The notes below the pieces were generated by a model, which was given only the letters and a program-made list of their open reading frames with translations, was not told the origin of the DNA and searched no databases. From an uncultured Candidatus Bathyarchaeia archaeon (GTDB taxonomy: Archaea > Thermoproteota > Bathyarchaeia > Bathyarchaeales > DTEX01): 64,000 nucleotides of DNA. Below, one piece after another: positions 5,215 through 17,326 of the stretch. How positions within the stretch are numbered: the stretch's first letter is position 1; every line of letters starts with the position of its first letter. The stretch covers positions 15,249 through 79,248 of the forward strand of contig CAZELO010000009.1 in the NCBI GenBank assembly GCA_964513245.1, read 5' to 3'. The position numbers and the translations under genes are program-made.

Positions 5215-7149
5215 TTATCTGTGAATCAATCGAGAGGAGTTTAGGAATAGGATGAAGTCAGGAAGCGCATGGGCTGCGGCGGCCATCGTGGGACTCAGGA
5301 CGCCCATGTACGCCAGTGTCACCCCAACAATGTTGAAGACAATGCTTGCTGCAATGTTTTGCCTGATCACCTTGAAGGTCTGATCTCCAATCTTGATGGC
5401 TTCCGGGATTTTCGTTAGATCGTCGGTCATCAGGGCGATGTCCGCCGTCTCTATAGCCGCGTCTGTCCCTGCTGCTCCCATAGCGATGCCCACGGAGGCC
5501 TGAGCCAATGCCGGCGCATCGTTTATGCCATCCCCCACCATCACCACTTTCTTTCCGCTCTCCACGAGTTTCCTCACCACGTCAACCTTTCCTTCGGGAA
5601 GCATCTCGGCAAAGACTTCGTTTATGCCTGCCTTCTTCGCTATGGCCTGGGCAGTACGAGGGTTGTCGCCAGTGAGCATGATCAACCTTACACCTCTATC
5701 CTTCAACTCTTTCAGGGCACGGATGGCATCCTCTCTTAAGGTGTCTGATACGGAGATGACACCACAAACGTTGTTGTCGTGGGCAACCAGCATCGCGGTC
5801 TTCCCCTCTTCTTCCTCATGAAGCATGTAATCCTCCACATCCGCAGGAATGTCGACATCCCTGTCTCTAAGCAGCTCCCTGTTGCCTATAGTCAGAGTCT
5901 GATTGTTACAAGTTACAACAACGCCCTTTCCACGTATGACATGGCATTCCTCGTGTTCAGGTATCTCGATCTGATGATCTTTTGCAGTTTCAAGAATGGC
6001 TCCGGCTAAGGGATGCCCAGAGTGTTTCTCGGCGATGGCCGCTAAAGTGAGTATCTCCCTCTCATTATGCGCATCGAAGCCCTTGACATCCGTTACTCTA
6101 GGCTTCCCTATGGTGAGGGTTCCAGTCTTGTCCATTACAACCGTGTCTACGCGTCCCAACTCCTCCAAATAGATCCCGCCTTTTACGATAATCCCCTTTC
6201 TCGCCGCCCTTCCCACACTTGCCACTATGGCAAGGGGTGTCGCCAACGCCACTGCACATGGACAGGCTACCACGGCCACTGCGATGGAAGAATTGATGTT
6301 TCTGGTGATCATGAAGGTGAGGAAGGCAACGACTAGAACGAGGGGTACGAAGTAGGTTGCAAAGCGATCAGCCGCCTTTTGAATCGGCGCCTTAGACCGT
6401 TCAGCCTCCTCGACTAGCTCAATGATCCGAGCCAATGTGGTATCCTTGCCTATCTTGGTTGTTCTCACCTCAATCAGGCCAAGCTCATTAATAGTGCCAG
6501 TAAACACTTCGTCGCCAACCTCTTTCTCCATAGGCATGGATTCTCCAGTGATCGTGGCTTGGTTGACAGAGGCGTGTCCAGCAACCACGATACCGTCTAC
6601 TGGTATTCTCTCTCCGGATTTGACGATAACAACATCGTCCTGCTTCACCTCACTTGTGCCTATCTCCACCTCGACGGCATTCCGCTTAACAACTGCTTTC
6701 TTGGGCGATATCTCTATCAACCCACGGATGGCGGATCTGCCCTTACTGATGATAAACTTGTCTAAAAACTCGGCTATCAGCATAAAAAAGGCTATGACAG
6801 CAGCTGACAGAAACTCGCCTATGGACAGCGCGGCGATCATACCCATGGTCATTGCCACTTCAGCCGTTATCGATTTGGCTTTAAGGTCAAGATACGCCCT
6901 CTTGAAGAGTGGCAAACCACCGAAAAGGGCTACTACGAGTCCGACTATGTCAAGGGAAACGAAAGGACGCAGAGCCTCAGACCAACTAACCAAGATCATC
7001 AGACCAACCGCTAAGATAAGAGAAAGTTCCAAGGTTCGATTTCCATCGGGAACCTCTTTGATCTCCGAATCCTGCAAACTGATGCGAACCCCTGAAGACG
7101 GCTGAACATGCCAGACGTTCATTTGATCCGATAATAAGGTTGCTGGCAA
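5215..7149 (-). CDS. heavy-metal translocating P1B-type ATPase (no N-terminal HMA domain)
   Basis: CPC in TM6 (VVACPCAVALATP), DKTGTLT, GDGINDAPAL; N-terminus has no CxxC metal-binding domain. Confidence 0.85.
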   Translation of the reverse strand: MPATLLSDQMNVWHVQPSSGVRISLQDSEIKEVPDGNRTLELSLILAVGLMILVSWSEALRPFVSLDIVGLVVALFGGLPLFKRAYLDLKAKSITAEVAMTMGMIAALSIGEFLSAAVIAFFMLIAEFLDKFIISKGRSAIRGLIEISPKKAVVKRNAVEVEIGTSEVKQDDVVIVKSGERIPVDGIVVAGHASVNQATITGESMPMEKEVGDEVFTGTINELGLIEVRTTKIGKDTTLARIIELVEEAERSKAPIQKAADRFATYFVPLVLVVAFLTFMITRNINSSIAVAVVACPCAVALATPLAIVASVGRAARKGIIVKGGIYLEELGRVDTVVMDKTGTLTIGKPRVTDVKGFDAHNEREILTLAAIAEKHSGHPLAGAILETAKDHQIEIPEHEECHVIRGKGVVVTCNNQTLTIGNRELLRDRDVDIPADVEDYMLHEEEEGKTAMLVAHDNNVCGVISVSDTLREDAIRALKELKDRGVRLIMLTGDNPRTAQAIAKKAGINEVFAEMLPEGKVDVVRKLVESGKKVVMVGDGINDAPALAQASVGIAMGAAGTDAAIETADIALMTDDLTKIPEAIKIGDQTFKVIRQNIAASIVFNIVGVTLAYMGVLSPTMAAAAHALPDFILFLNSSRLIHR

Positions 7150-7184
7150 AGATTGCCAATGTTGTGCCTAGGATTTGTCAAAGC

Positions 7185-7574
7185 CTAAGCAACGGTGACC
7201 CTGACAACTTCGATGCCTCTTATGACCCTAAGCCTCTCAGCAAACTCTTTTATCCTTGCGATGTCTCCTCTTGTGAGGATAACTTCAAGGCAGGACCCAC
7301 GCATATGATTGTGCAAGGTGGTTGAAATAATATCCTCATACTTGTGTTGCAGTCGGCTAATCTCTTCAAACATGCCTCTTCTATCAATGTTAAAGGTTAT
7401 GGTAACCACGGCCAATGCTGTTCCTGTCAACCTCGACGACCACTCAGCTTCACTGAACAAGGTTCTTAGGGCCTCTCGCACAATCTCTGAACGACTGGCG
7501 TATTGCTTCTCTTTAGCCATTCCATCGAGCTTTACTATCATCTCGTTCGGAAGCGATACATTGATTGTACCCAT
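7185..7574 (-). CDS. nikR: NikR-family nickel-responsive regulator (RHH + C-terminal metal-binding domain)
   Basis: N-terminal RHH (TINVSLPNEMIVKLD...SRSEIVREALR) and HxH...C motif (TLHNHMRGSC); start moved to internal Met. Confidence 0.65.
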   Translation of the reverse strand: MGTINVSLPNEMIVKLDGMAKEKQYASRSEIVREALRTLFSEAEWSSRLTGTALAVVTITFNIDRRGMFEEISRLQHKYEDIISTTLHNHMRGSCLEVILTRGDIARIKEFAERLRVIRGIEVVRVTVA

Positions 7575-7778: not shown

Positions 7779-8813
7779 ATGCTCGAAATAGATGGAAGCC
7801 AGAAGAGCGGAAGCGGAACCATTCTGCGCATGGCAGTCGCCCTATCCGCGATAGTGGGTAGTCCACTGCACATATGCAACATTCGAAAGAAACGTGACCA
7901 GTCCGGGCTCAAGCCGCAACACCTAGAAGCCGTGCTTACAGCCGCAAAACTTTGCGACGCAGAGATAAAAGGCGCAACACTAGGCTCGCAGGAGCTTTGG
8001 TTTACGCCCAGCCAGATAAAGGGCGGCGAGATGCACGCGGAAATCGGGACAGCCGGCAGCATACCGATGCTGGTCATGACTGTTCTGCCCATATGCGCCT
8101 TTGCGGAGCAGCCTGTGATCCTGCACATAACGCGGGGTGGAACCGACGTCCGACATTCGCCGACGACGAATTATCTTGCCCATGTCCTTCTGCCGATGCT
8201 GAACCGCATGGGGTTGGATGCCTCGATAACCGTCCACAAGTACGGGTATTACCCGAAGGGCATGGGCGAAGCCACATTGAGGGTTCAACCGTGCAGGGGG
8301 CTTAAGCCGCTCGTGTTGAAGGAGTTCGGCAAGGTCACAAATGTGGGCGGAATCTCCACATGTACCTTTTTGGCGGACAGAAGGGTGGCTGAACGTCAGG
8401 CGCGAGAAGCTGAAAGGCTTTTGAGACAAAGAGGCTTCGAACCCAGCATCAGAATAGTCAACGACTTCTCCAATCCCCTTCAGAAGGGAAGCTCCCTCGT
8501 CCTCTGGGCTGAAACGGACACAGGTGCGCTGCTTGGCGGAGACGCGATTGGCGAAATCGGCAAGCCGAGTGAGGCTGTGGCACAAGAGGCTACGAGAAAT
8601 CTTCTCGCTGAGATCGATGCCATGGCTACGGCGGACGTTCACCTTGCAGATCTGCTGGTGCCGTATGTGGCACTTGCCCGAGGCGGATCTGTTTATTTGG
8701 CGCGGCAGGTTACGGATCACGTTGAAGCAAATATTTGGCTTGCATCTGAGATTTTAGGCGTCAGTTTCAGAGTTGAAAAGAAGGGTGCACTATATCAGAT
8801 TGCCAAAACGTAG
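7779..8813 (+). CDS. rtcA: RNA 3'-terminal phosphate cyclase
   Basis: EIDGSQKSGSGTILRMAVALSAI N-terminus and overall RtcA-like length. Confidence 0.85.
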   Translation: MLEIDGSQKSGSGTILRMAVALSAIVGSPLHICNIRKKRDQSGLKPQHLEAVLTAAKLCDAEIKGATLGSQELWFTPSQIKGGEMHAEIGTAGSIPMLVMTVLPICAFAEQPVILHITRGGTDVRHSPTTNYLAHVLLPMLNRMGLDASITVHKYGYYPKGMGEATLRVQPCRGLKPLVLKEFGKVTNVGGISTCTFLADRRVAERQAREAERLLRQRGFEPSIRIVNDFSNPLQKGSSLVLWAETDTGALLGGDAIGEIGKPSEAVAQEATRNLLAEIDAMATADVHLADLLVPYVALARGGSVYLARQVTDHVEANIWLASEILGVSFRVEKKGALYQIAKT

Positions 8814-9075
8814 GCATCGGAACTGCAGGAATTTCACGGTCAAAGCCAGAGTAGAAAGGGGAGCCTGCTCTACAGCGCTCGTGCAACTGGTTGGTATTAT
8901 GGGCTTCACGATAGTCCATTTTTCCAGTCAACTCGGATACCTATGACAGGTCGGATAAACTGGTTGCCGATGGCTGTATCTCCAGCAAGATGCGCCTGAT
9001 TTTTGAGGAAATTTTGAATTTTTTGAGCCTAGAGACCGAGAAAGACGAAAAAATAGGCTGCAAGATGCTTCATAG

Positions 9076-9129
9076 GGGTTCTGTTACCTCTTCGGTTGAT
9101 ATGTAATGCTGTTACTTTTCGGTTGATAA
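9076..9129. repeat. left terminal inverted repeat of IS6-family element
   Basis: gggttctgttacctcttcggttgatatgtaatgctgttacttttcggttgataa; exact reverse complement at 12075-12128. Confidence 0.8.
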
Positions 9130-9216: not shown

Positions 9217-9549
9217 ATGATTTGGCCAAAAACAAAGGCTGCTCTATGGAGATATACGCCTCGTGGAATCAAGGTATTCCTCAAAAAGACCACTTGGTAT
9301 GATCATATTTGTCGTGGTCATGTAGAGATGAATAATTCATTGGAGGATGTGATAAGAGCATTAGAGAGACCTGAAGCAACCCATGCCTTCAAAAGAGATA
9401 GATTTAGCTACTGCTATTCTCAACGGAGAGGAAGCTTTATAATGTTAGTTTACAAGGTAAGTGGAAGATTGGGATGGGTGAAAACGGCATACATGGTACA
9501 AAACCCTTATGTAGAAGTAGAAGGCTATAATAGAGTGTGGCCAATATGA
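9217..9549 (+). CDS. hypothetical small protein, possible toxin-like partner (DUF4258-like) of downstream DUF2283 gene
   Basis: 13-bp overlap with next ORF in a TA-like arrangement; no strong motif. Confidence 0.3.
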   Translation: MIWPKTKAALWRYTPRGIKVFLKKTTWYDHICRGHVEMNNSLEDVIRALERPEATHAFKRDRFSYCYSQRRGSFIMLVYKVSGRLGWVKTAYMVQNPYVEVEGYNRVWPI

Positions 9550-9830
9550 GTGAAATAATAGATGTGGCTACAAATGTTTTTCATGCGATAAAACCAGACT
9601 CTGAAATAACTATAGATTACGATGAGGAAGCAGATGTCCTGTATATCAATTACCATAATAGCCCTCTTCAGAAAGCAGATTTTGGAAGAAGATTCGGTGA
9701 CTATATTGTTAGAATAAGACAAACATTAGTGATTGGTGTCACAATCATTAATGCCTCACTTCATTTGAAGAAGAGTTTTTCAGATAAACCATCAATACTT
9801 ACCGAACCATTTACTCTTCGGATTGCCTAA
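9537..9830 (+). CDS. DUF2283-family small protein (antitoxin-like)
   Basis: ITIDYDEEADVLYI ... GVTIINAS matches the DUF2283 pattern. Confidence 0.5.
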   Translation: MANMSEIIDVATNVFHAIKPDSEITIDYDEEADVLYINYHNSPLQKADFGRRFGDYIVRIRQTLVIGVTIINASLHLKKSFSDKPSILTEPFTLRIA

Positions 9831-10948
9831 CTGCCTTTTTTGGCATTCTGAATTAGCGTTATCCATTTGTTTTCTCCTTTAATTTCAACTCCGCAGGCTT
9901 CGGAAGGCGTCTTTCCCTTCAAGGCTTCATGCGGTCTTACAAAATTATGGTATATTTGATAACCTTTTAGAATTGGTGTATCTTTCGTCTTCAATCCTCT
10001 CATAACTTTTTCTCTGTCTCTGATTTCTCCGTTTAGTCTTTCCATTTTGTTGTTGTTTTTGTCTCCTCTGATGTGGATGTGTGCGATGTGTTGTGTTCTC
10101 GGAGCTTTCAACGTCCAAAACTCTTTCTTGTATGCGTCATGATAGGCGGGTAATCCATCTGTGATTATTGTTTTAGGGCTTTTGCCCATGAGTTCTTTGC
10201 CCATTTTGAAGAGTTTTCTTGCGTCATGCTTGTATTTGGATTCTGCGACTTCTTGAGCTATCCAATATCGTGTTTCGTCATCCATTAGGGCGAAGACGTA
10301 CTTCATGTCTCCGTTGATTTTAACCCATAATTCGTCGGCTCTCCAAGTGTCTGAAACATCGATTTTCAGTTTCATCACATATTCTTCCATCAGTCGGATG
10401 TACTTCTTAATCCACATGTAAACCGTCTTGTGAGAGATTTTTACTCCTAACAGTCTAAGCGATTTCTGAGTGTTCCTTAATGATTCTCCGCTGAAATACA
10501 GTTGCATGGCTGTCGTTACTGCTTGCGGGTTATGCTTCATCTTCTCAAAGCCAATATTCACGCTGAATGTCTTTCCGCAATTATCACATATGAAACGTTG
10601 AATGTCTCCACTTTTGTTTCTTCTAATCCCGAACTTCTTTATGTTATCTGAATCACAGAACACACATCTACAAACATCCGTTATCGGCTCTATCTTCCTT
10701 GACTCAACTTCTCTTCTCAACCTTTCGGAGAACTCAACAGCCCAAATATGCTTACACTTCACGCCACGATAAATATGATCTGGGCAAGAACACAGCCATC
10801 CAACCTCAGAATTGATGACTTCATATTCTCCGCCGTTTGATTGTGATTTAACCTTGTAGCAACGATTGTCTGTTCTTTCGATGTGGTTCAGCTTCGCTAT
10901 TTCAAGACCTTTCTGTTCACGGATGTTGGCGGTTATCTGTGTTGCCAT
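9827..10948 (-). CDS. IS6-family DDE transposase with N-terminal SWIM-type zinc finger
   Basis: WRADELWVKINGDMKYVFALMDDETRYW, ITDGLPAY, NNNKMERLNGEIRDREKV, YHNFVRPHEAL; CSCPDH...CKH zinc finger. Confidence 0.8.
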   Translation of the reverse strand: MATQITANIREQKGLEIAKLNHIERTDNRCYKVKSQSNGGEYEVINSEVGWLCSCPDHIYRGVKCKHIWAVEFSERLRREVESRKIEPITDVCRCVFCDSDNIKKFGIRRNKSGDIQRFICDNCGKTFSVNIGFEKMKHNPQAVTTAMQLYFSGESLRNTQKSLRLLGVKISHKTVYMWIKKYIRLMEEYVMKLKIDVSDTWRADELWVKINGDMKYVFALMDDETRYWIAQEVAESKYKHDARKLFKMGKELMGKSPKTIITDGLPAYHDAYKKEFWTLKAPRTQHIAHIHIRGDKNNNKMERLNGEIRDREKVMRGLKTKDTPILKGYQIYHNFVRPHEALKGKTPSEACGVEIKGENKWITLIQNAKKGS

Positions 10949-10950
10949 TT

Positions 10951-11049
10951 TAGGTACCTATTATATAGTTAGGTACCTAACAATATAAACCTTTCGGTAC
11001 CTAAAATTTATAAGGAAGCATTCCCAATATCGTAGTAGGTGCCTAAATG
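10951..11049. promoter_or_regulatory. array of four GGTRCCTAA boxes (two perfect 10-bp TAGGTACCTA palindromes) between transposase and AbrB-like gene
   Basis: Copies at 10951, 10969, 10995, 11036; TTATATA TATA-like elements interspersed. Confidence 0.45.
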
Positions 11050-11211
11050 AAACTTCAAAAACAACTTTCAAGAAGAGTGGATGACAGAGAGTATCCCAAA
11101 TACGTTGTAACCATTCCACCCAAACAGATCGAAGAGGTTGGATGGAAAGAAGGTACTGAACTGGAAGCAACAGTTAAAGATGGAAGAATAATACTAAAGC
11201 CAAAAGATTAG
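11047..11211 (+). CDS. AbrB/SpoVT (swapped-hairpin) domain small protein, 54 aa, absent from ORF track
   Basis: Own translation: MKLQKQLSRRVDDREYPKYVVTIPPKQIEEVGWKEGTELEATVKDGRIILKPKD. Confidence 0.45.
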   Translation: MKLQKQLSRRVDDREYPKYVVTIPPKQIEEVGWKEGTELEATVKDGRIILKPKD

Positions 11212-12065
11212 ATTCTGAATTGCCCCTCTATGAACAATCTATCAAAATCAGAAACCTTTGAGCCAACTTCATTAATAAACCGATTAACATCTTCAACAGG
11301 CAATTCTGTTATTGGATACTTGATATTGTGCATGTCATTAACCATTTTCTTACGTTCTTCTTCTGTTTTAAGAGTATTCCAACTATCTGGAAACATCACA
11401 TTTGGAAGATAATACACTTGAGGCAAAAAGTCGGTACGATAACCTACACTAGTGTCAATATCTGTATCTTGAATTAACTTTATAATGAATAGAGCCAATT
11501 TTGCTGTTTGCTCCATAGTCATCTTTTCATTCCACATTTTTTTGATGAACAAAGCACCGTAAGGTCGGCCGTGCCCTATTACTTTAATCTTGTTTACTGG
11601 TTCAGGAAGACCGAGACCAGTGAAGTTCACCAATTCAGGTATTATATTAACTCTTATAGCCATCAAGACATTAAGATAACCTACTAAAAAATGCCTATCT
11701 TGTTCGTAAATCTTGTGCATTTCTCTTATTACATTCTCAGCTATTGTTTTTAGTTTTTCATGGTCATTTAAATTAATTTTTTTAGCTTCTTGATCCCTAA
11801 CTGAAACTGTCATTCTGTTTTGAAATGAACTGAACAAGCCACTTGCTCCAGATGCACCCATAACCACAGAAGTAAAAGGTCTGAACAATTTTTTTCCATA
11901 CTCATTAGTACCTTCATCAACGGTAATTTTCGTATCCCCTACTAAAACTACCCCATCAACACACTTCGCACCCAAGATAAATGTCATATCTTTCTTCACC
12001 AATCTGAGCAATTTATGGTCTATTAGGTACCTATTGTATTCTTCCCCATATAAAACATTTTTCAT
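11208..12065 (-). CDS. proteasome-like Ntn hydrolase (HslV/Anbu/beta-subunit-like), cargo of IS element
   Basis: M-TFILGAKCVDGVVLVGD-TKIT (Thr1, Asp17, Lys near 33) and GASGASG; 26-aa leader or alternative start at 11987. Confidence 0.5.
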   Translation of the reverse strand: MKNVLYGEEYNRYLIDHKLLRLVKKDMTFILGAKCVDGVVLVGDTKITVDEGTNEYGKKLFRPFTSVVMGASGASGLFSSFQNRMTVSVRDQEAKKINLNDHEKLKTIAENVIREMHKIYEQDRHFLVGYLNVLMAIRVNIIPELVNFTGLGLPEPVNKIKVIGHGRPYGALFIKKMWNEKMTMEQTAKLALFIIKLIQDTDIDTSVGYRTDFLPQVYYLPNVMFPDSWNTLKTEEERKKMVNDMHNIKYPITELPVEDVNRFINEVGSKVSDFDRLFIEGQFRI

Positions 12066-12074
12066 AGAATCACC

Positions 12075-12128
12075 TTATCAACCGAAAAGTAACAGCATTA
12101 CATATCAACCGAAGAGGTAACAGAACCC
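12075..12128. repeat. right terminal inverted repeat of IS6-family element
   Basis: Exact reverse complement of 9076-9129. Confidence 0.8.
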
Positions 12129-12185
12129 TTCACAGTAAAGGTTAAATAGCCTCTTTCGGCTTTAGTAAAATCTCGGTGGAGAAGT

Positions 12186-15684: not shown

Positions 15685-15920
15685 CGCACAAACCTAAACT
15701 ATCAAACCCAACAAATATATAACTATCCACTGCCCACCAAGTAAGCCCAATATACACAAGCCATCCAATGCCCCTAAATTGTATCAAAAGACTAGGAAGA
15801 GTCCTGAATCAATCTTCCACCCTACAAGCCCTCTGCCTAAGAATCACTAGATTACACATCGCCAAATGCTCGGCAACAAGAAAAATATTTAGCGATAATG
15901 AAATTAACTTTAGATATGCA

Positions 15921-16418
15921 ATGAAAGCCGATGATGTTGATCATAAGAGGAAGCATACAATGAAAGAGGAAGAGGTCATTTTTTATGTCAAAAGGTTCTT
16001 TGAGAAACAAAACTATCGTGTTCAAAAAGAGGTTTCCATTCATGGCTACAGAGTAGATATATTAGCGGAGAAGGCAGATGAAAAGTATTTGGTTGAGTGC
16101 AAGTCAGATGAGTATCTCAGATCACATGAAATACACGTTATGATTGGACAATTGGTTTCCGAGATGCACCAGGTAGGTTCTCAACTGCATTATGGTCTTG
16201 CGATGCCGTTTTCACTTTCAACTTACTTAGGAGAATTTGGTATCGGGGGCATCAATGCACTAAGATTGCATCTATTTGTCGTGGGACAAGGAGATATATG
16301 GAATGGGGAAGTCTTTTATCTAGACACGGAAAGCCTGCTCAGTTATATCAAAGACCTTAGAAAAAATCCTGACACTGCCTGGGCAACTCTTATTACCTTA
16401 GGGAAAAAACTGAATTAA
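15921..16418 (+). CDS. PD-(D/E)xK nuclease-fold hypothetical protein
   Basis: GYRVDILAEK...YLVECKS gives D...ExK catalytic signature; AT-rich context. Confidence 0.35.
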   Translation: MKADDVDHKRKHTMKEEEVIFYVKRFFEKQNYRVQKEVSIHGYRVDILAEKADEKYLVECKSDEYLRSHEIHVMIGQLVSEMHQVGSQLHYGLAMPFSLSTYLGEFGIGGINALRLHLFVVGQGDIWNGEVFYLDTESLLSYIKDLRKNPDTAWATLITLGKKLN

Positions 16419-16592
16419 GTTACTATTAAGCATATTCATATAGATAATGGGAATTTTCTCATTCTAGAAAACCTGGTAACTGGAATATCTAACTAGAAAA
16501 CATGGCACTTAATTCTTTCGACAGACGAAAGTCCCATATTTGAGTGTTACGAATCTTTCGACAGCCTATTGTACTTCATTTTCATTGGTTCT

Positions 16593-17093
16593 TTAGGGAT
16601 AGATGTACAGTCTGGTTGAGCGAGAGAAGGTGCCTTGCTGAATCATGACAACCCTCTTGTTTTCCGTTTCCCATCGGACAATAAGAATCAATCTTAAAAG
16701 AAAATAAGCGAATAGCCCCGCGAAGAGGAAAGAGACTTCGCCATATACAAAAGCTGGACTTAGCGCACGAAAGAGAAAATGAAAAAGTAGAAAAGCCAGA
16801 ATCCCAGCTGTACCTGCATATATAATCGCACGGTTCCCTATTGTGAATTCTCCTTTTCTTTTTAAAACTTTTAATTCTCCTTGAGTGACTATCGTTCCTG
16901 CAATTATACCCGAGCCTAGCCCGAAAATGATGAAGCAAACAACAAGAGCTATCGAAGACGGATTAACCGGGTTTAAGGTTACGATTTGACGAAACAGTAG
17001 TACGTCGCCAAAGAACAAAAAAGCCAAAGAAAGGAGACCAAAACCAGTATTGGTCGTTTCCTTCTCCACTATAGCCGCTCTCCTCGCGAGCAA
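16593..17093 (-). CDS. hypothetical membrane protein
   Basis: Multiple hydrophobic helices; AT-rich. Confidence 0.3.
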   Translation of the reverse strand: MLARRAAIVEKETTNTGFGLLSLAFLFFGDVLLFRQIVTLNPVNPSSIALVVCFIIFGLGSGIIAGTIVTQGELKVLKRKGEFTIGNRAIIYAGTAGILAFLLFHFLFRALSPAFVYGEVSFLFAGLFAYFLLRLILIVRWETENKRVVMIQQGTFSRSTRLYIYP

Positions 17094-17326
17094 TTCGATT
17101 TTGACATAGTTTTATTTTCTATTTAAGGCTTGTTCTTCACACTTCCTCATAGTCTGACTAGTTTTTTACTCTTACGAGAATGTCAACAGGGAATGTCATT
17201 TCGTCCGATTTCACTTTTCATTGTTCCTCTTTGTCGAGTAGAAAATTTATCGAACAAGGAGATACGAATGAAGTCGCGGGAAATAAATGGTTAATGAGAA
17301 AAAGCGCAATTAAATCATCGTTAAAC

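Follow-up and report, generated by a model that had tools for sequence, protein, structure and literature searches.

The stretch of DNA analysed here (the window) comprises 64,000 nt of contig CAZELO010000009.1 from an uncultured Candidatus Bathyarchaeia archaeon, and it contains a 3,053-bp IS6-like unit with five open reading frames (ORFs) that encloses a gene for a proteasome homolog (PSH). The PSH gene (11208..12065, minus strand) lies at the right end of the unit and is convergent with a gene for a 54-aa DNA-binding protein of the AbrB/SpoVT/MazE fold (11047..11211, plus strand). A 98-bp divergent control region (10949..11046) separates abrB from the gene for an IS6-like DDE transposase (tnp; 9827..10948, minus strand), and two overlapping ORFs fill the space between the 3' end of tnp and the left end of the unit. 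For comparison we fetched 75 related loci, labelled L0xx below, and the copy in the window is referred to as WIN. The superfamilies of PSH and of the transposase were each already known; what is new here is a conserved, operator-linked PSH-AbrB cassette, its re-use by two transposase families and a dual-start architecture at the catalytic threonine of PSH.

An earlier reading based on the sequence only had described an ORF at 11208-12065 that encodes a proteasome-like Ntn hydrolase, and both points were confirmed. The ORF has 285 aa and consists of a 26-codon N-terminal extension, an Ntn-hydrolase core and a C-terminal helical extension. In a search against the proteasome profile, PF00227 matched with 48.5 bits (E = 1.1e-12, cut-off 22.4) over profile positions 7–181 of 189, and since this match covers almost the whole profile and is far above the cut-off, the claim of a proteasome-type (MEROPS T1) fold stands. 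An AlphaFold2 (AF2) model with a predicted local distance difference test score (pLDDT) of 84.8 and a predicted template modelling score (pTM) of 0.82 likewise contained the alpha-beta-beta-alpha sandwich with helices H1–H4, where H1 and H2 are predicted at residues 75–94 and 102–130, respectively. The C-terminal extension has about 75 aa, with predicted helices at 227–231, 235–249 and 257–279, and the protein is longer than a canonical beta subunit, as had been remarked from its length. PSH is a divergent proteasome-fold Ntn hydrolase.

Residues 27–48 of PSH are M-T-FILGAKCVDGVVLVGDTKIT. When T28 is numbered as Thr1, D44 takes position 17 and the invariant K59 takes position 32 in WIN and 33 in relatives, which have one residue more, so that the Thr1, Asp17 and Lys near position 33 proposed by the sequence-only reading are indeed of the proteasome type. 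The entire catalytic set comprises T28, D44, K46 (at the Arg19 position), K59, G73, G164-H165-G166 and D204. Among 170 PSH relatives, T28 (Thr1) was conserved in 153 of 156, D44 (Asp17) in 166 of 167, K59 (Lys33) in 168 of 168 and G73 (Gly47) in 170 of 170, while the Arg19 position was Lys or Arg in 158 of 168 and the Asp166 position was Asp in 145 of 169. The ratio of non-synonymous to synonymous divergence (dN/dS) of the PSH core was 0.07–0.16. This strong purifying selection, combined with the invariant catalytic set, argues for PSH being an active enzyme. The segment GASGASG (residues 70–76) had been taken for the GSG loop, but it holds the invariant G73, the counterpart of the oxyanion residue Gly47; the true counterpart of the beta-subunit G128-S129-G130 loop is G164-H165-G166 within IGHGRPYG. 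At the Ser129 position, 70 relatives had His (H165 in WIN) and 53 had Ser. We also observed a Cys seven residues after Thr1 (C35 in WIN) that was kept in 158 of 163 relatives within KC.DGVVL, a motif common to archaeal alpha subunits.

We then compared PSH with the known proteasome-type families. PSH failed the NCBIfam equivalog cut-offs for a canonical archaeal 20S beta or alpha subunit by a wide margin (TIGR03634, 23.9 versus 224; TIGR03633, 21.8 versus 287), and the PSH family profile matched an archaeal alpha subunit (9s34_H, E = 1e-10), a beta subunit (1.7e-5) and HslV (5e-4) in the PDB, which puts PSH at roughly the same distance from both types of subunit. The sequence-only reading had likened PSH to the proteasome, HslV and Anbu; of this, the proteasome-type fold stood, but an assignment to HslV, Anbu or the canonical beta subunits did not. 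PSH has neither the bacterial distribution nor the HslU or Anbu-operon partner genes that define HslV, Anbu and BPH. It differs from archaeal 20S beta and alpha subunits by Met instead of Gly before Thr1, by His instead of Ser129, by its C-terminal helical extension and by being a single transposon-borne gene with no PAN/AAA partner gene inside the element. Fuchs, Alva and Lupas catalogued 22 uncharacterised proteasome homologs in 2021 (PMC8665760), among which the ACC and WPH groups fit the features of PSH when compared by description only. ACC is an archaeal group with a C-terminal coiled coil (representative WP_161937350.1; PMC8665760); PSH is likewise rare and restricted to archaea, and its helix 257–279 could form the predicted coiled coil. 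The WPH group and group II resemble PSH in being similar to both alpha and beta subunits (PMC8665760). Neither transposases nor AbrB nor mobile elements in general are mentioned in that paper, and full-text searching of the literature turned up no report linking a proteasome homolog to a transposase or AbrB.

Proteasome homologs need not be proteases, given that Connectase acts as a monomeric protein ligase (PMC7980362; PMC8665760), and PSH might accordingly be a sequence-specific ligase or transpeptidase acting on one defined target, with a hint of altered chemistry coming from its long C-terminal extension and from His165, which is conserved at the Ser129 position. PSH nevertheless retains H1 and H2, which are missing in Connectase, has no two-helix insertion between S3 and S4 and gave no DUF2121 match in the Pfam scan, and we regard a Connectase-type function as very improbable.

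PSH relatives were rare: 49 were found by a word-indexed search of 5.8 billion proteins, and when 1.84 billion cluster representatives were searched exhaustively with a profile, 127 relatives passed E <= 1e-30 and 431 passed E <= 1e-10. The hosts were Bathyarchaeia, Methanolobus, Methanosarcinales, Pacearchaeota, Woesearchaeota, Aenigmatarchaeota, Micrarchaeota, Nitrososphaeraceae, Thermoproteota and Archaeoglobus, and a cluster look-up listed WP_406655547.1 among the accessions of the Methanolobus PSH. Two PSH contigs, each of about 2 kb (L004 and L012), came from bacterial bins, and their bacterial assignment is probably mis-binning. The distribution of the family over Bathyarchaeia, Methanosarcinales, DPANN lineages, Thermoproteota and Archaeoglobus is patchy, in line with the horizontal spread that had been surmised. 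PADLOC gave no match for any of the five element proteins, PHROG gave none for PSH, and no relative was found in the viral contigs of IMG/VR; a defence or phage origin was rejected on these results.

The location of the gene on an insertion sequence (IS), also claimed by the sequence-only reading, was borne out by perfect 54-nt terminal inverted repeats on both sides of it and by a flanking duplication. The left repeat (9076..9129, tip GGGTTCTGTTACC) pairs at 54 of 54 positions with the right repeat (12075..12128), from which the annotated PSH start at 12065 is only 10 nt inward. The repeat occurs in two copies across the 64 kb with 0 expected, and no further copy of the IS was found in the window. 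Both ends carry the tip GGTTCTGTTACC, which matches the IS6 hallmarks GG and cTGTt (PMC7986276). Within the left repeat are two 14-nt sub-repeats, CTCTTCGGTTGATA and CTTTTCGGTTGATA, with a spacing of 27 nt, which may be transposase binding sites; their consensus CT[CT]TTCGGTTGATA is found at 9088-9101 and 9115-9128 and mirrored at 12076-12089 and 12103-12116, and the inner copy TGTTACTTTTCG is kept in relatives.

The inverted repeats of the window are flanked by the direct repeats TTCATAG (9069..9075) and TTCACAG (12129..12135), or, taken as 8-bp target duplications, by CTTCATAG at 9068-9075 and CTTCACAG at 12128-12135, which agree at seven of eight positions, as do those of L056. Perfect 8-bp duplications surround the whole unit in L005 (GAGCATAA) and L048 (TCTAATTT). 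A further perfect duplication (AAAAAGAG, 8/8) flanks a 1,385-bp derivative in L039 (5905-7289) that has IS6-type inverted repeats and only the PSH and AbrB genes, and this non-autonomous element was presumably mobilised in trans, as it is nevertheless flanked by a perfect duplication. Therefore, the PSH gene is inside a transposable unit, and the whole unit transposes. In L005 the reading frame of the PSH gene itself (8001-8847) is shifted by +1 at about codon 90, so that the gene is a pseudogene unless the assembly is wrong there, and the element still has inverted repeats matching at 86% in addition to the perfect duplication. The GC content is about 35–40% inside the element of the window versus about 50–55% in the flanking archaeal genes, which encode the housekeeping proteins RtcA and HtpX, followed by Cgi121 (KEOPS), RNase HII and PyrI. 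RtcA, Cgi121, RNase HII and PyrI at this GC content agree with the archaeal host assumed from the sequence.

The 373-aa transposase has N-terminal SWIM and zinc-ribbon domains, with a match to the SWIM profile PF04434, and scored 61.3 bits with PF13610, above its cut-off of 27, but 114.2 bits with NF033587, slightly short of its cut-off of 125. The element resembles IS6/IS26-family insertion sequences, in particular their archaeal and zinc-finger branches, in its match to the DDE domain PF13610, the GG and cTGTt tips and the 8-bp target duplications. Whereas classical IS6 elements are 0.7–0.9 kb long with inverted repeats of 15–20 bp and one ORF (PMC7986276), the present element has 3,053 bp, 54-nt inverted repeats, five ORFs and a transposase with SWIM and zinc-ribbon domains. 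ISDsp3 is the single IS6 member recorded with a passenger gene (PMC7986276), and our element would count as a passenger-carrying 'tIS', widening the IS6-like group by forms that have long inverted repeats and carry passengers. The placement of archaeal members in IS6 is disputed (PMC6807381).

The AbrB protein matched PF04014 (E = 1.4e-9) and, at its cut-off, TIGR01439. It was better conserved than PSH and the transposase, with a mean column identity of 72% across 13 elements and an invariant N-terminus LQKQ.SR, and this high conservation fits the recognition of a conserved site. A candidate site is the 10-bp palindrome TAGGTACCTA, which with one mismatch allowed occurs five times in the window, all inside the element, where 0.43 are expected. 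Four copies of this putative operator (10951-10960, 10970-10979, 10994-11003 and 11036-11045) are interleaved with A/T-rich TATA-like boxes in the control region between tnp and abrB, and the fifth (12024..12033) lies 5' of Met27 of PSH, inside the extension codons N-R-Y-L. An A/T-rich TATA-like box precedes each copy by about 20 nt. Across the AbrB-linked sequences, from which L036, L042 and L059 were left out for this count, 24 of 29 had the palindrome 19–72 nt before the Met-Thr codon, and it was missing there in L006, L007, L017, L023 and L047. Two or three palindromes were found between abrB and tnp in every other locus whose contig covers that region, and with the exception of L041 and L055 the palindrome was absent from AbrB-less loci. 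The stop codons of PSH and abrB overlap at 11208-11211 (TTAG on both strands), as they do by the same 4 nt in L002, and mutual interference of the convergent transcripts is conceivable.

The order inverted repeat, PSH, convergent AbrB and transposase was found in the window and in at least 17 further loci (L002, L004, L005, L011, L016, L018, L019, L024, L026, L030, L037, L038, L042, L043, L048, L059 and L069), with PSH identities to the window from 80% down to about 32% and different flanking host genes. A convergent AbrB gene adjoined PSH in 23 of the 43 loci with at least 400 bp of downstream DNA. Where 1.8 kb or more followed the PSH gene, the IS6-like transposase was present in 8 of 14 AbrB-linked loci. 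Three of the others, all from DPANN genomes, had an unrelated transposase of PF01609 (DDE_Tnp_1) instead (L006, 8010-10909; L007, 7962-12166; L010, 3945-5920), and in all of them an operator pair lies directly upstream of the transposase gene. Transposase relatives of 69–79% identity were found to lack PSH and AbrB, with other small-protein pairs filling the same slot. As it is joined to at least two transposase families and replaced by other small-protein pairs in PSH-less relatives, the PSH-AbrB pair behaves as a portable cassette. The earlier designation of PSH as cargo is right in that the gene is carried by an IS element, but it understates the link: PSH belongs to a conserved AbrB-paired cassette beside tnp, which shares an operator-like palindrome with the tnp promoter region and occurs with two transposase families.

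Two side observations concern these loci. In L007, abrB and tnp are separated by an inserted pair of RloB and AAA_21 (OLD/AbiEii-like) genes. In L069, a Cas12f1-like TNB (TnpB-type) gene (6082-7311) is found downstream of the PSH-AbrB-Tnp unit and an HNH gene upstream, and the region appears rich in mobile elements.

The 26-codon leader and the internal Met codon (11987-11985) pointed out by the sequence-only reading were both present, and the form starting at this Met (Met27-Thr28; 11208..11987, minus strand) would be 259 aa long. Removal of the initiator Met from this short form would expose Thr1. The same pattern is associated with HslV, Anbu and BPH. Its HslV part is uncertain, given that most HslV subunits carry propeptides (PMC8665760). 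According to the same paper, propeptides occur in beta and HslV subunits only. The codon before Thr1 was a start codon in 57 of 57 loci (ATG in 53, TTG in 3 and GTG in 1, with no other Leu or Val codon). At the protein level the residue before Thr1 was M in 127, L in 23 and V in 4 of 170 relatives, and 51 of the 170 gene calls begin at that Met. Four loci (L006, L015, L027 and L058) have an in-frame stop 1–6 codons upstream (5–7 codons by another count for L006 and L015) and no alternative start. A GGTGA is located 8 nt upstream of the Met27 ATG, and a candidate archaeal TATA box (TTTTATAT, 12048..12055, minus strand) is located between the annotated ATG at 12065 and the operator, about 20 nt before the latter. 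In an alignment, the TTTATA of this box was kept in WIN, L002, L005, L016, L018 and L017 and degenerate in L037 (TTTATC) and L019 (TTTTAA), while the third-codon T before it was invariant in 8 of 8 despite the varying amino acid, and we infer that the box acts as a promoter. Together, the conservation of the start codon, the upstream stops, the TATA box, the operator and the GGTGA indicate that a short form is produced from Met27, as far as can be read from the sequence.

Based on these results, we consider it fairly probable that PSH is an integral, co-regulated and probably active accessory enzyme of the transposon. Several observations weigh against this reading. Most members of the transposase clade are without the PSH cassette (5386 relatives at E <= 1e-20 versus a few hundred protease clusters), so the cassette is not needed for transposition. 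In 20 of the 43 loci PSH was found without AbrB, about half of the PSH family is without AbrB or transposase, and in the complete genome of Methanolobus sp. ZRKC2 the PSH gene is located between the nif operon and amtB-glnK; the enzyme would therefore work outside transposons too. The binding of AbrB to the palindrome is inferred from their co-occurrence only. Archaeal 20S alpha subunits, as we read that of T. acidophilum, keep the Thr/Asp/Lys equivalents though they are inactive. Lastly, the frame upstream of Met27 was open for at least 20 codons in 24 of 25 AbrB-linked loci, and with the extension thus kept open, the main product may have a blocked Thr1, unless autoprocessing takes place at the Met|Thr junction, which would be an unusual site.

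The first of these observations would suit an ordinary passenger, the view nearest to that of the sequence-only reading: a stand-alone, ring-forming and self-compartmentalising protease that benefits the host, for instance in stress proteolysis, and is carried by the IS with no role in transposition. PSH has the fold of ring-forming proteases with H1–H4 present, solitary chromosomal PSH genes without AbrB or transposase are found in L003 and L008 (both Methanolobus), L009, L015, L025 and L049–L058, the transposase clade is mostly devoid of the gene, and the same elements carry other, variable cargo. A mere passenger would however leave several features unaccounted for: the position and orientation of PSH beside the inverted repeat and AbrB are fixed down to about 32% identity, the putative AbrB operator precedes both the PSH gene and tnp, the cassette is re-used with the unrelated PF01609 transposase preceded by the same operators, and the true variable cargo is at the opposite end of the element. 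We therefore hold the passenger explanation to be unlikely, if the most serious competitor of an accessory enzyme integral to the transposon.

The open upstream frame raises a second alternative, in which the extension is always translated and never removed, Thr28 is buried and PSH is an inactive, alpha-like scaffold or binding partner. In the 25 AbrB-linked loci, the upstream in-frame region was open for a median of 29 codons versus 5 and 10 in the other frames; in the AbrB-less loci the corresponding values were 22 versus 5 and 13, and the frame was open in 27 of 32 scorable loci. The open stretch spans 20–45 codons, its indels are multiples of three, and a GGTGAT followed by a start codon is conserved about 78–90 nt upstream of Met27. 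The best PDB profile match being an archaeal alpha subunit, the KC.DGVVL motif and the resemblance of the end of the extension, LVKKDMT, to the AVKRGAT preceding the Thr position of an archaeal alpha subunit would all fit an alpha-like protein. These features have to be set against the retention of Thr1, Asp17, Lys33 and Gly47 in 98–100% of 170 diverged sequences, the start codon that always precedes Thr1, and the upstream stops and gene starts described above. The extension also had a pLDDT below 50 in the AF2 model and showed only weak constraint at the protein level (dN/dS about 0.3–1.1), and on balance an inactive alpha-like PSH is quite improbable.

Synonymous divergence in the extension was depressed relative to the core, and together with its dN/dS this is the pattern expected where coding and regulatory constraints overlap. 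Two simpler explanations of the extension had been considered. That the upstream 26 codons are merely non-coding was initially supported by upstream stops in two loci and by the presence of the operator and a TATA-like box, and it was dropped as the sole explanation after the frame test (29 versus 5 and 10 open codons). That the extension is a plain propeptide was weakened by the codon before Thr1 being always ATG, TTG or GTG. The simplest reading of the sequence data suggests two isoforms translated from two in-frame starts.

Returning to PSH as an accessory enzyme of the transposon, the following course of events can be proposed. AbrB would bind the palindromes and repress tnp, abrB and the PSH gene, each palindrome being placed about 20 nt past a TATA-like box, a position at which a bound repressor would obstruct RNA polymerase in archaea. 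Repressors of archaea typically act from just downstream of the TATA box. The transcript from the internal, AbrB-controlled promoter would be translated from Met27, and methionine aminopeptidase would expose Thr1 and yield an active threonine peptidase, while in the long form from the upstream start Thr1 would be blocked, making this form a zymogen or an alpha-like subunit. PSH would then act on a protein of the element, most likely the AbrB repressor or the transposase, so that PSH and the repressor would form a switch setting how often the element moves. We put this specific protease-repressor switch forward tentatively, as clearly less certain than the accessory role itself. More tentative still is the generalisation that the PSH-AbrB cassette is an unrecognised portable module of transposition control, in which AbrB shuts tnp, abrB and the PSH gene via TAGGTACCTA and PSH turns transposition on or off by removing the repressor or the transposase. 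As a bolder idea, long alpha-like forms with a blocked Thr and short beta-like forms with a free Thr1 could co-assemble into a minimal one-gene proteasome.

The logic of such a switch would be that of ImmA/ImmR and of the toxin-antitoxin (TA) pairs of Tn3-family transposons. ImmA/ImmR are protease-repressor pairs of bacterial integrative and conjugative elements and phages, in which ImmA is a metalloprotease and ImmR a helix-turn-helix repressor. They share with the proposed switch an element-encoded repressor of mobility genes combined with a protease; there is no homology, and the analogy is functional only. In the Tn3 family, TA pairs including a PIN-AbrB pair abut the transposition genes, and their coupling to tnp expression has been proposed (Lima-Mendez et al. 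2020; PMC7157771). Like PSH-AbrB, these are small cassettes with an AbrB-type or similar DNA-binding member adjoining the transposition genes rather than cargo, and both are suspected of being linked to the expression of tnp. They differ in that the proteasome-fold partner is not a known toxin, the PSH and AbrB genes are convergent, the hosts are archaea, the transposases are IS6-like or PF01609, and a common operator before tnp is directly visible in the sequence.

The Tn3 parallel also opens the alternative of an addiction module, where PSH would be toxic and held by AbrB and the pair would stabilise the transposon or replicon. AbrB matches the MazE/AbrB antitoxin family (PF04014), the cassette is small, mobile and apparently autoregulated by its DNA-binding member, and the element of the window may hold a second TA-like pair (with DUF2283; see below). 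We nevertheless judge an addiction module improbable, since AbrB with its 54 aa is the DNA-binding domain alone without a C-terminal toxin-binding tail, the two genes are convergent and form no operon, long contigs and one complete genome stably retain PSH with AbrB missing, and PSH has no PADLOC or PHROG match. For type II TA systems in particular, the convergent genes, the short AbrB and the 20 of 43 loci with PSH alone do not agree with the definition.

Non-20S proteasome homologs are mostly uncharacterised, and Connectase, the one that has been studied, had an unexpected and useful activity. The genomic context described here, with a transposase, a small repressor and a common operator, provides a testable functional lead for the orphan PSH family, and the PSH-AbrB pair suggests that transposons may carry their own protease. 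Control of the repressor or the transposase by PSH, if real, would mean that archaeal transposons regulate themselves in a new way. It would link proteasome-type chemistry to mobile DNA for the first time, with PSH as the first proteasome homolog to be devoted to a mobile element. The equidistance of PSH from alpha and beta subunits, the start codon before Thr1 and the in-frame extension are moreover relevant to the origin of alpha-like and beta-like subunits.

Among the remaining features of the element, a variable cargo slot (9217..9830, plus strand) lies between the left inverted repeat and the 3' end of tnp. Its first ORF (9217-9549, 110 aa) had no family match, and its second (9537-9830, 97 aa) had a weak, below-cut-off match to DUF2283 (E = 9e-4); the pair may be TA-like cargo. 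The genes in this slot differed among L002, L005 and L048, and the true variable cargo is thus at the end of the element opposite to PSH. On the other side of tnp, we had initially considered that AbrB was present in every element of the transposase clade, and this was found to be false given that the relatives of 69–79% identity hold unrelated small proteins there. In L070 (3337-3931), L071 (3256-3875) and L072 (3090-3901), the slot divergent from tnp holds a different small protein with weak ribbon-helix-helix or zinc-ribbon matches, followed by a second gene for a protein of 142–220 aa whose family is unassigned, and the slot looks like an exchangeable position for a regulator and its partner.

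In the rest of the window, an Rfam scan detected one tRNA and nothing else. A second low-GC patch was found at about 15750-17250, with 38–41% GC versus about 51% around it, which contains an ORF of 216 aa (15768-16418) and may be another acquired segment.

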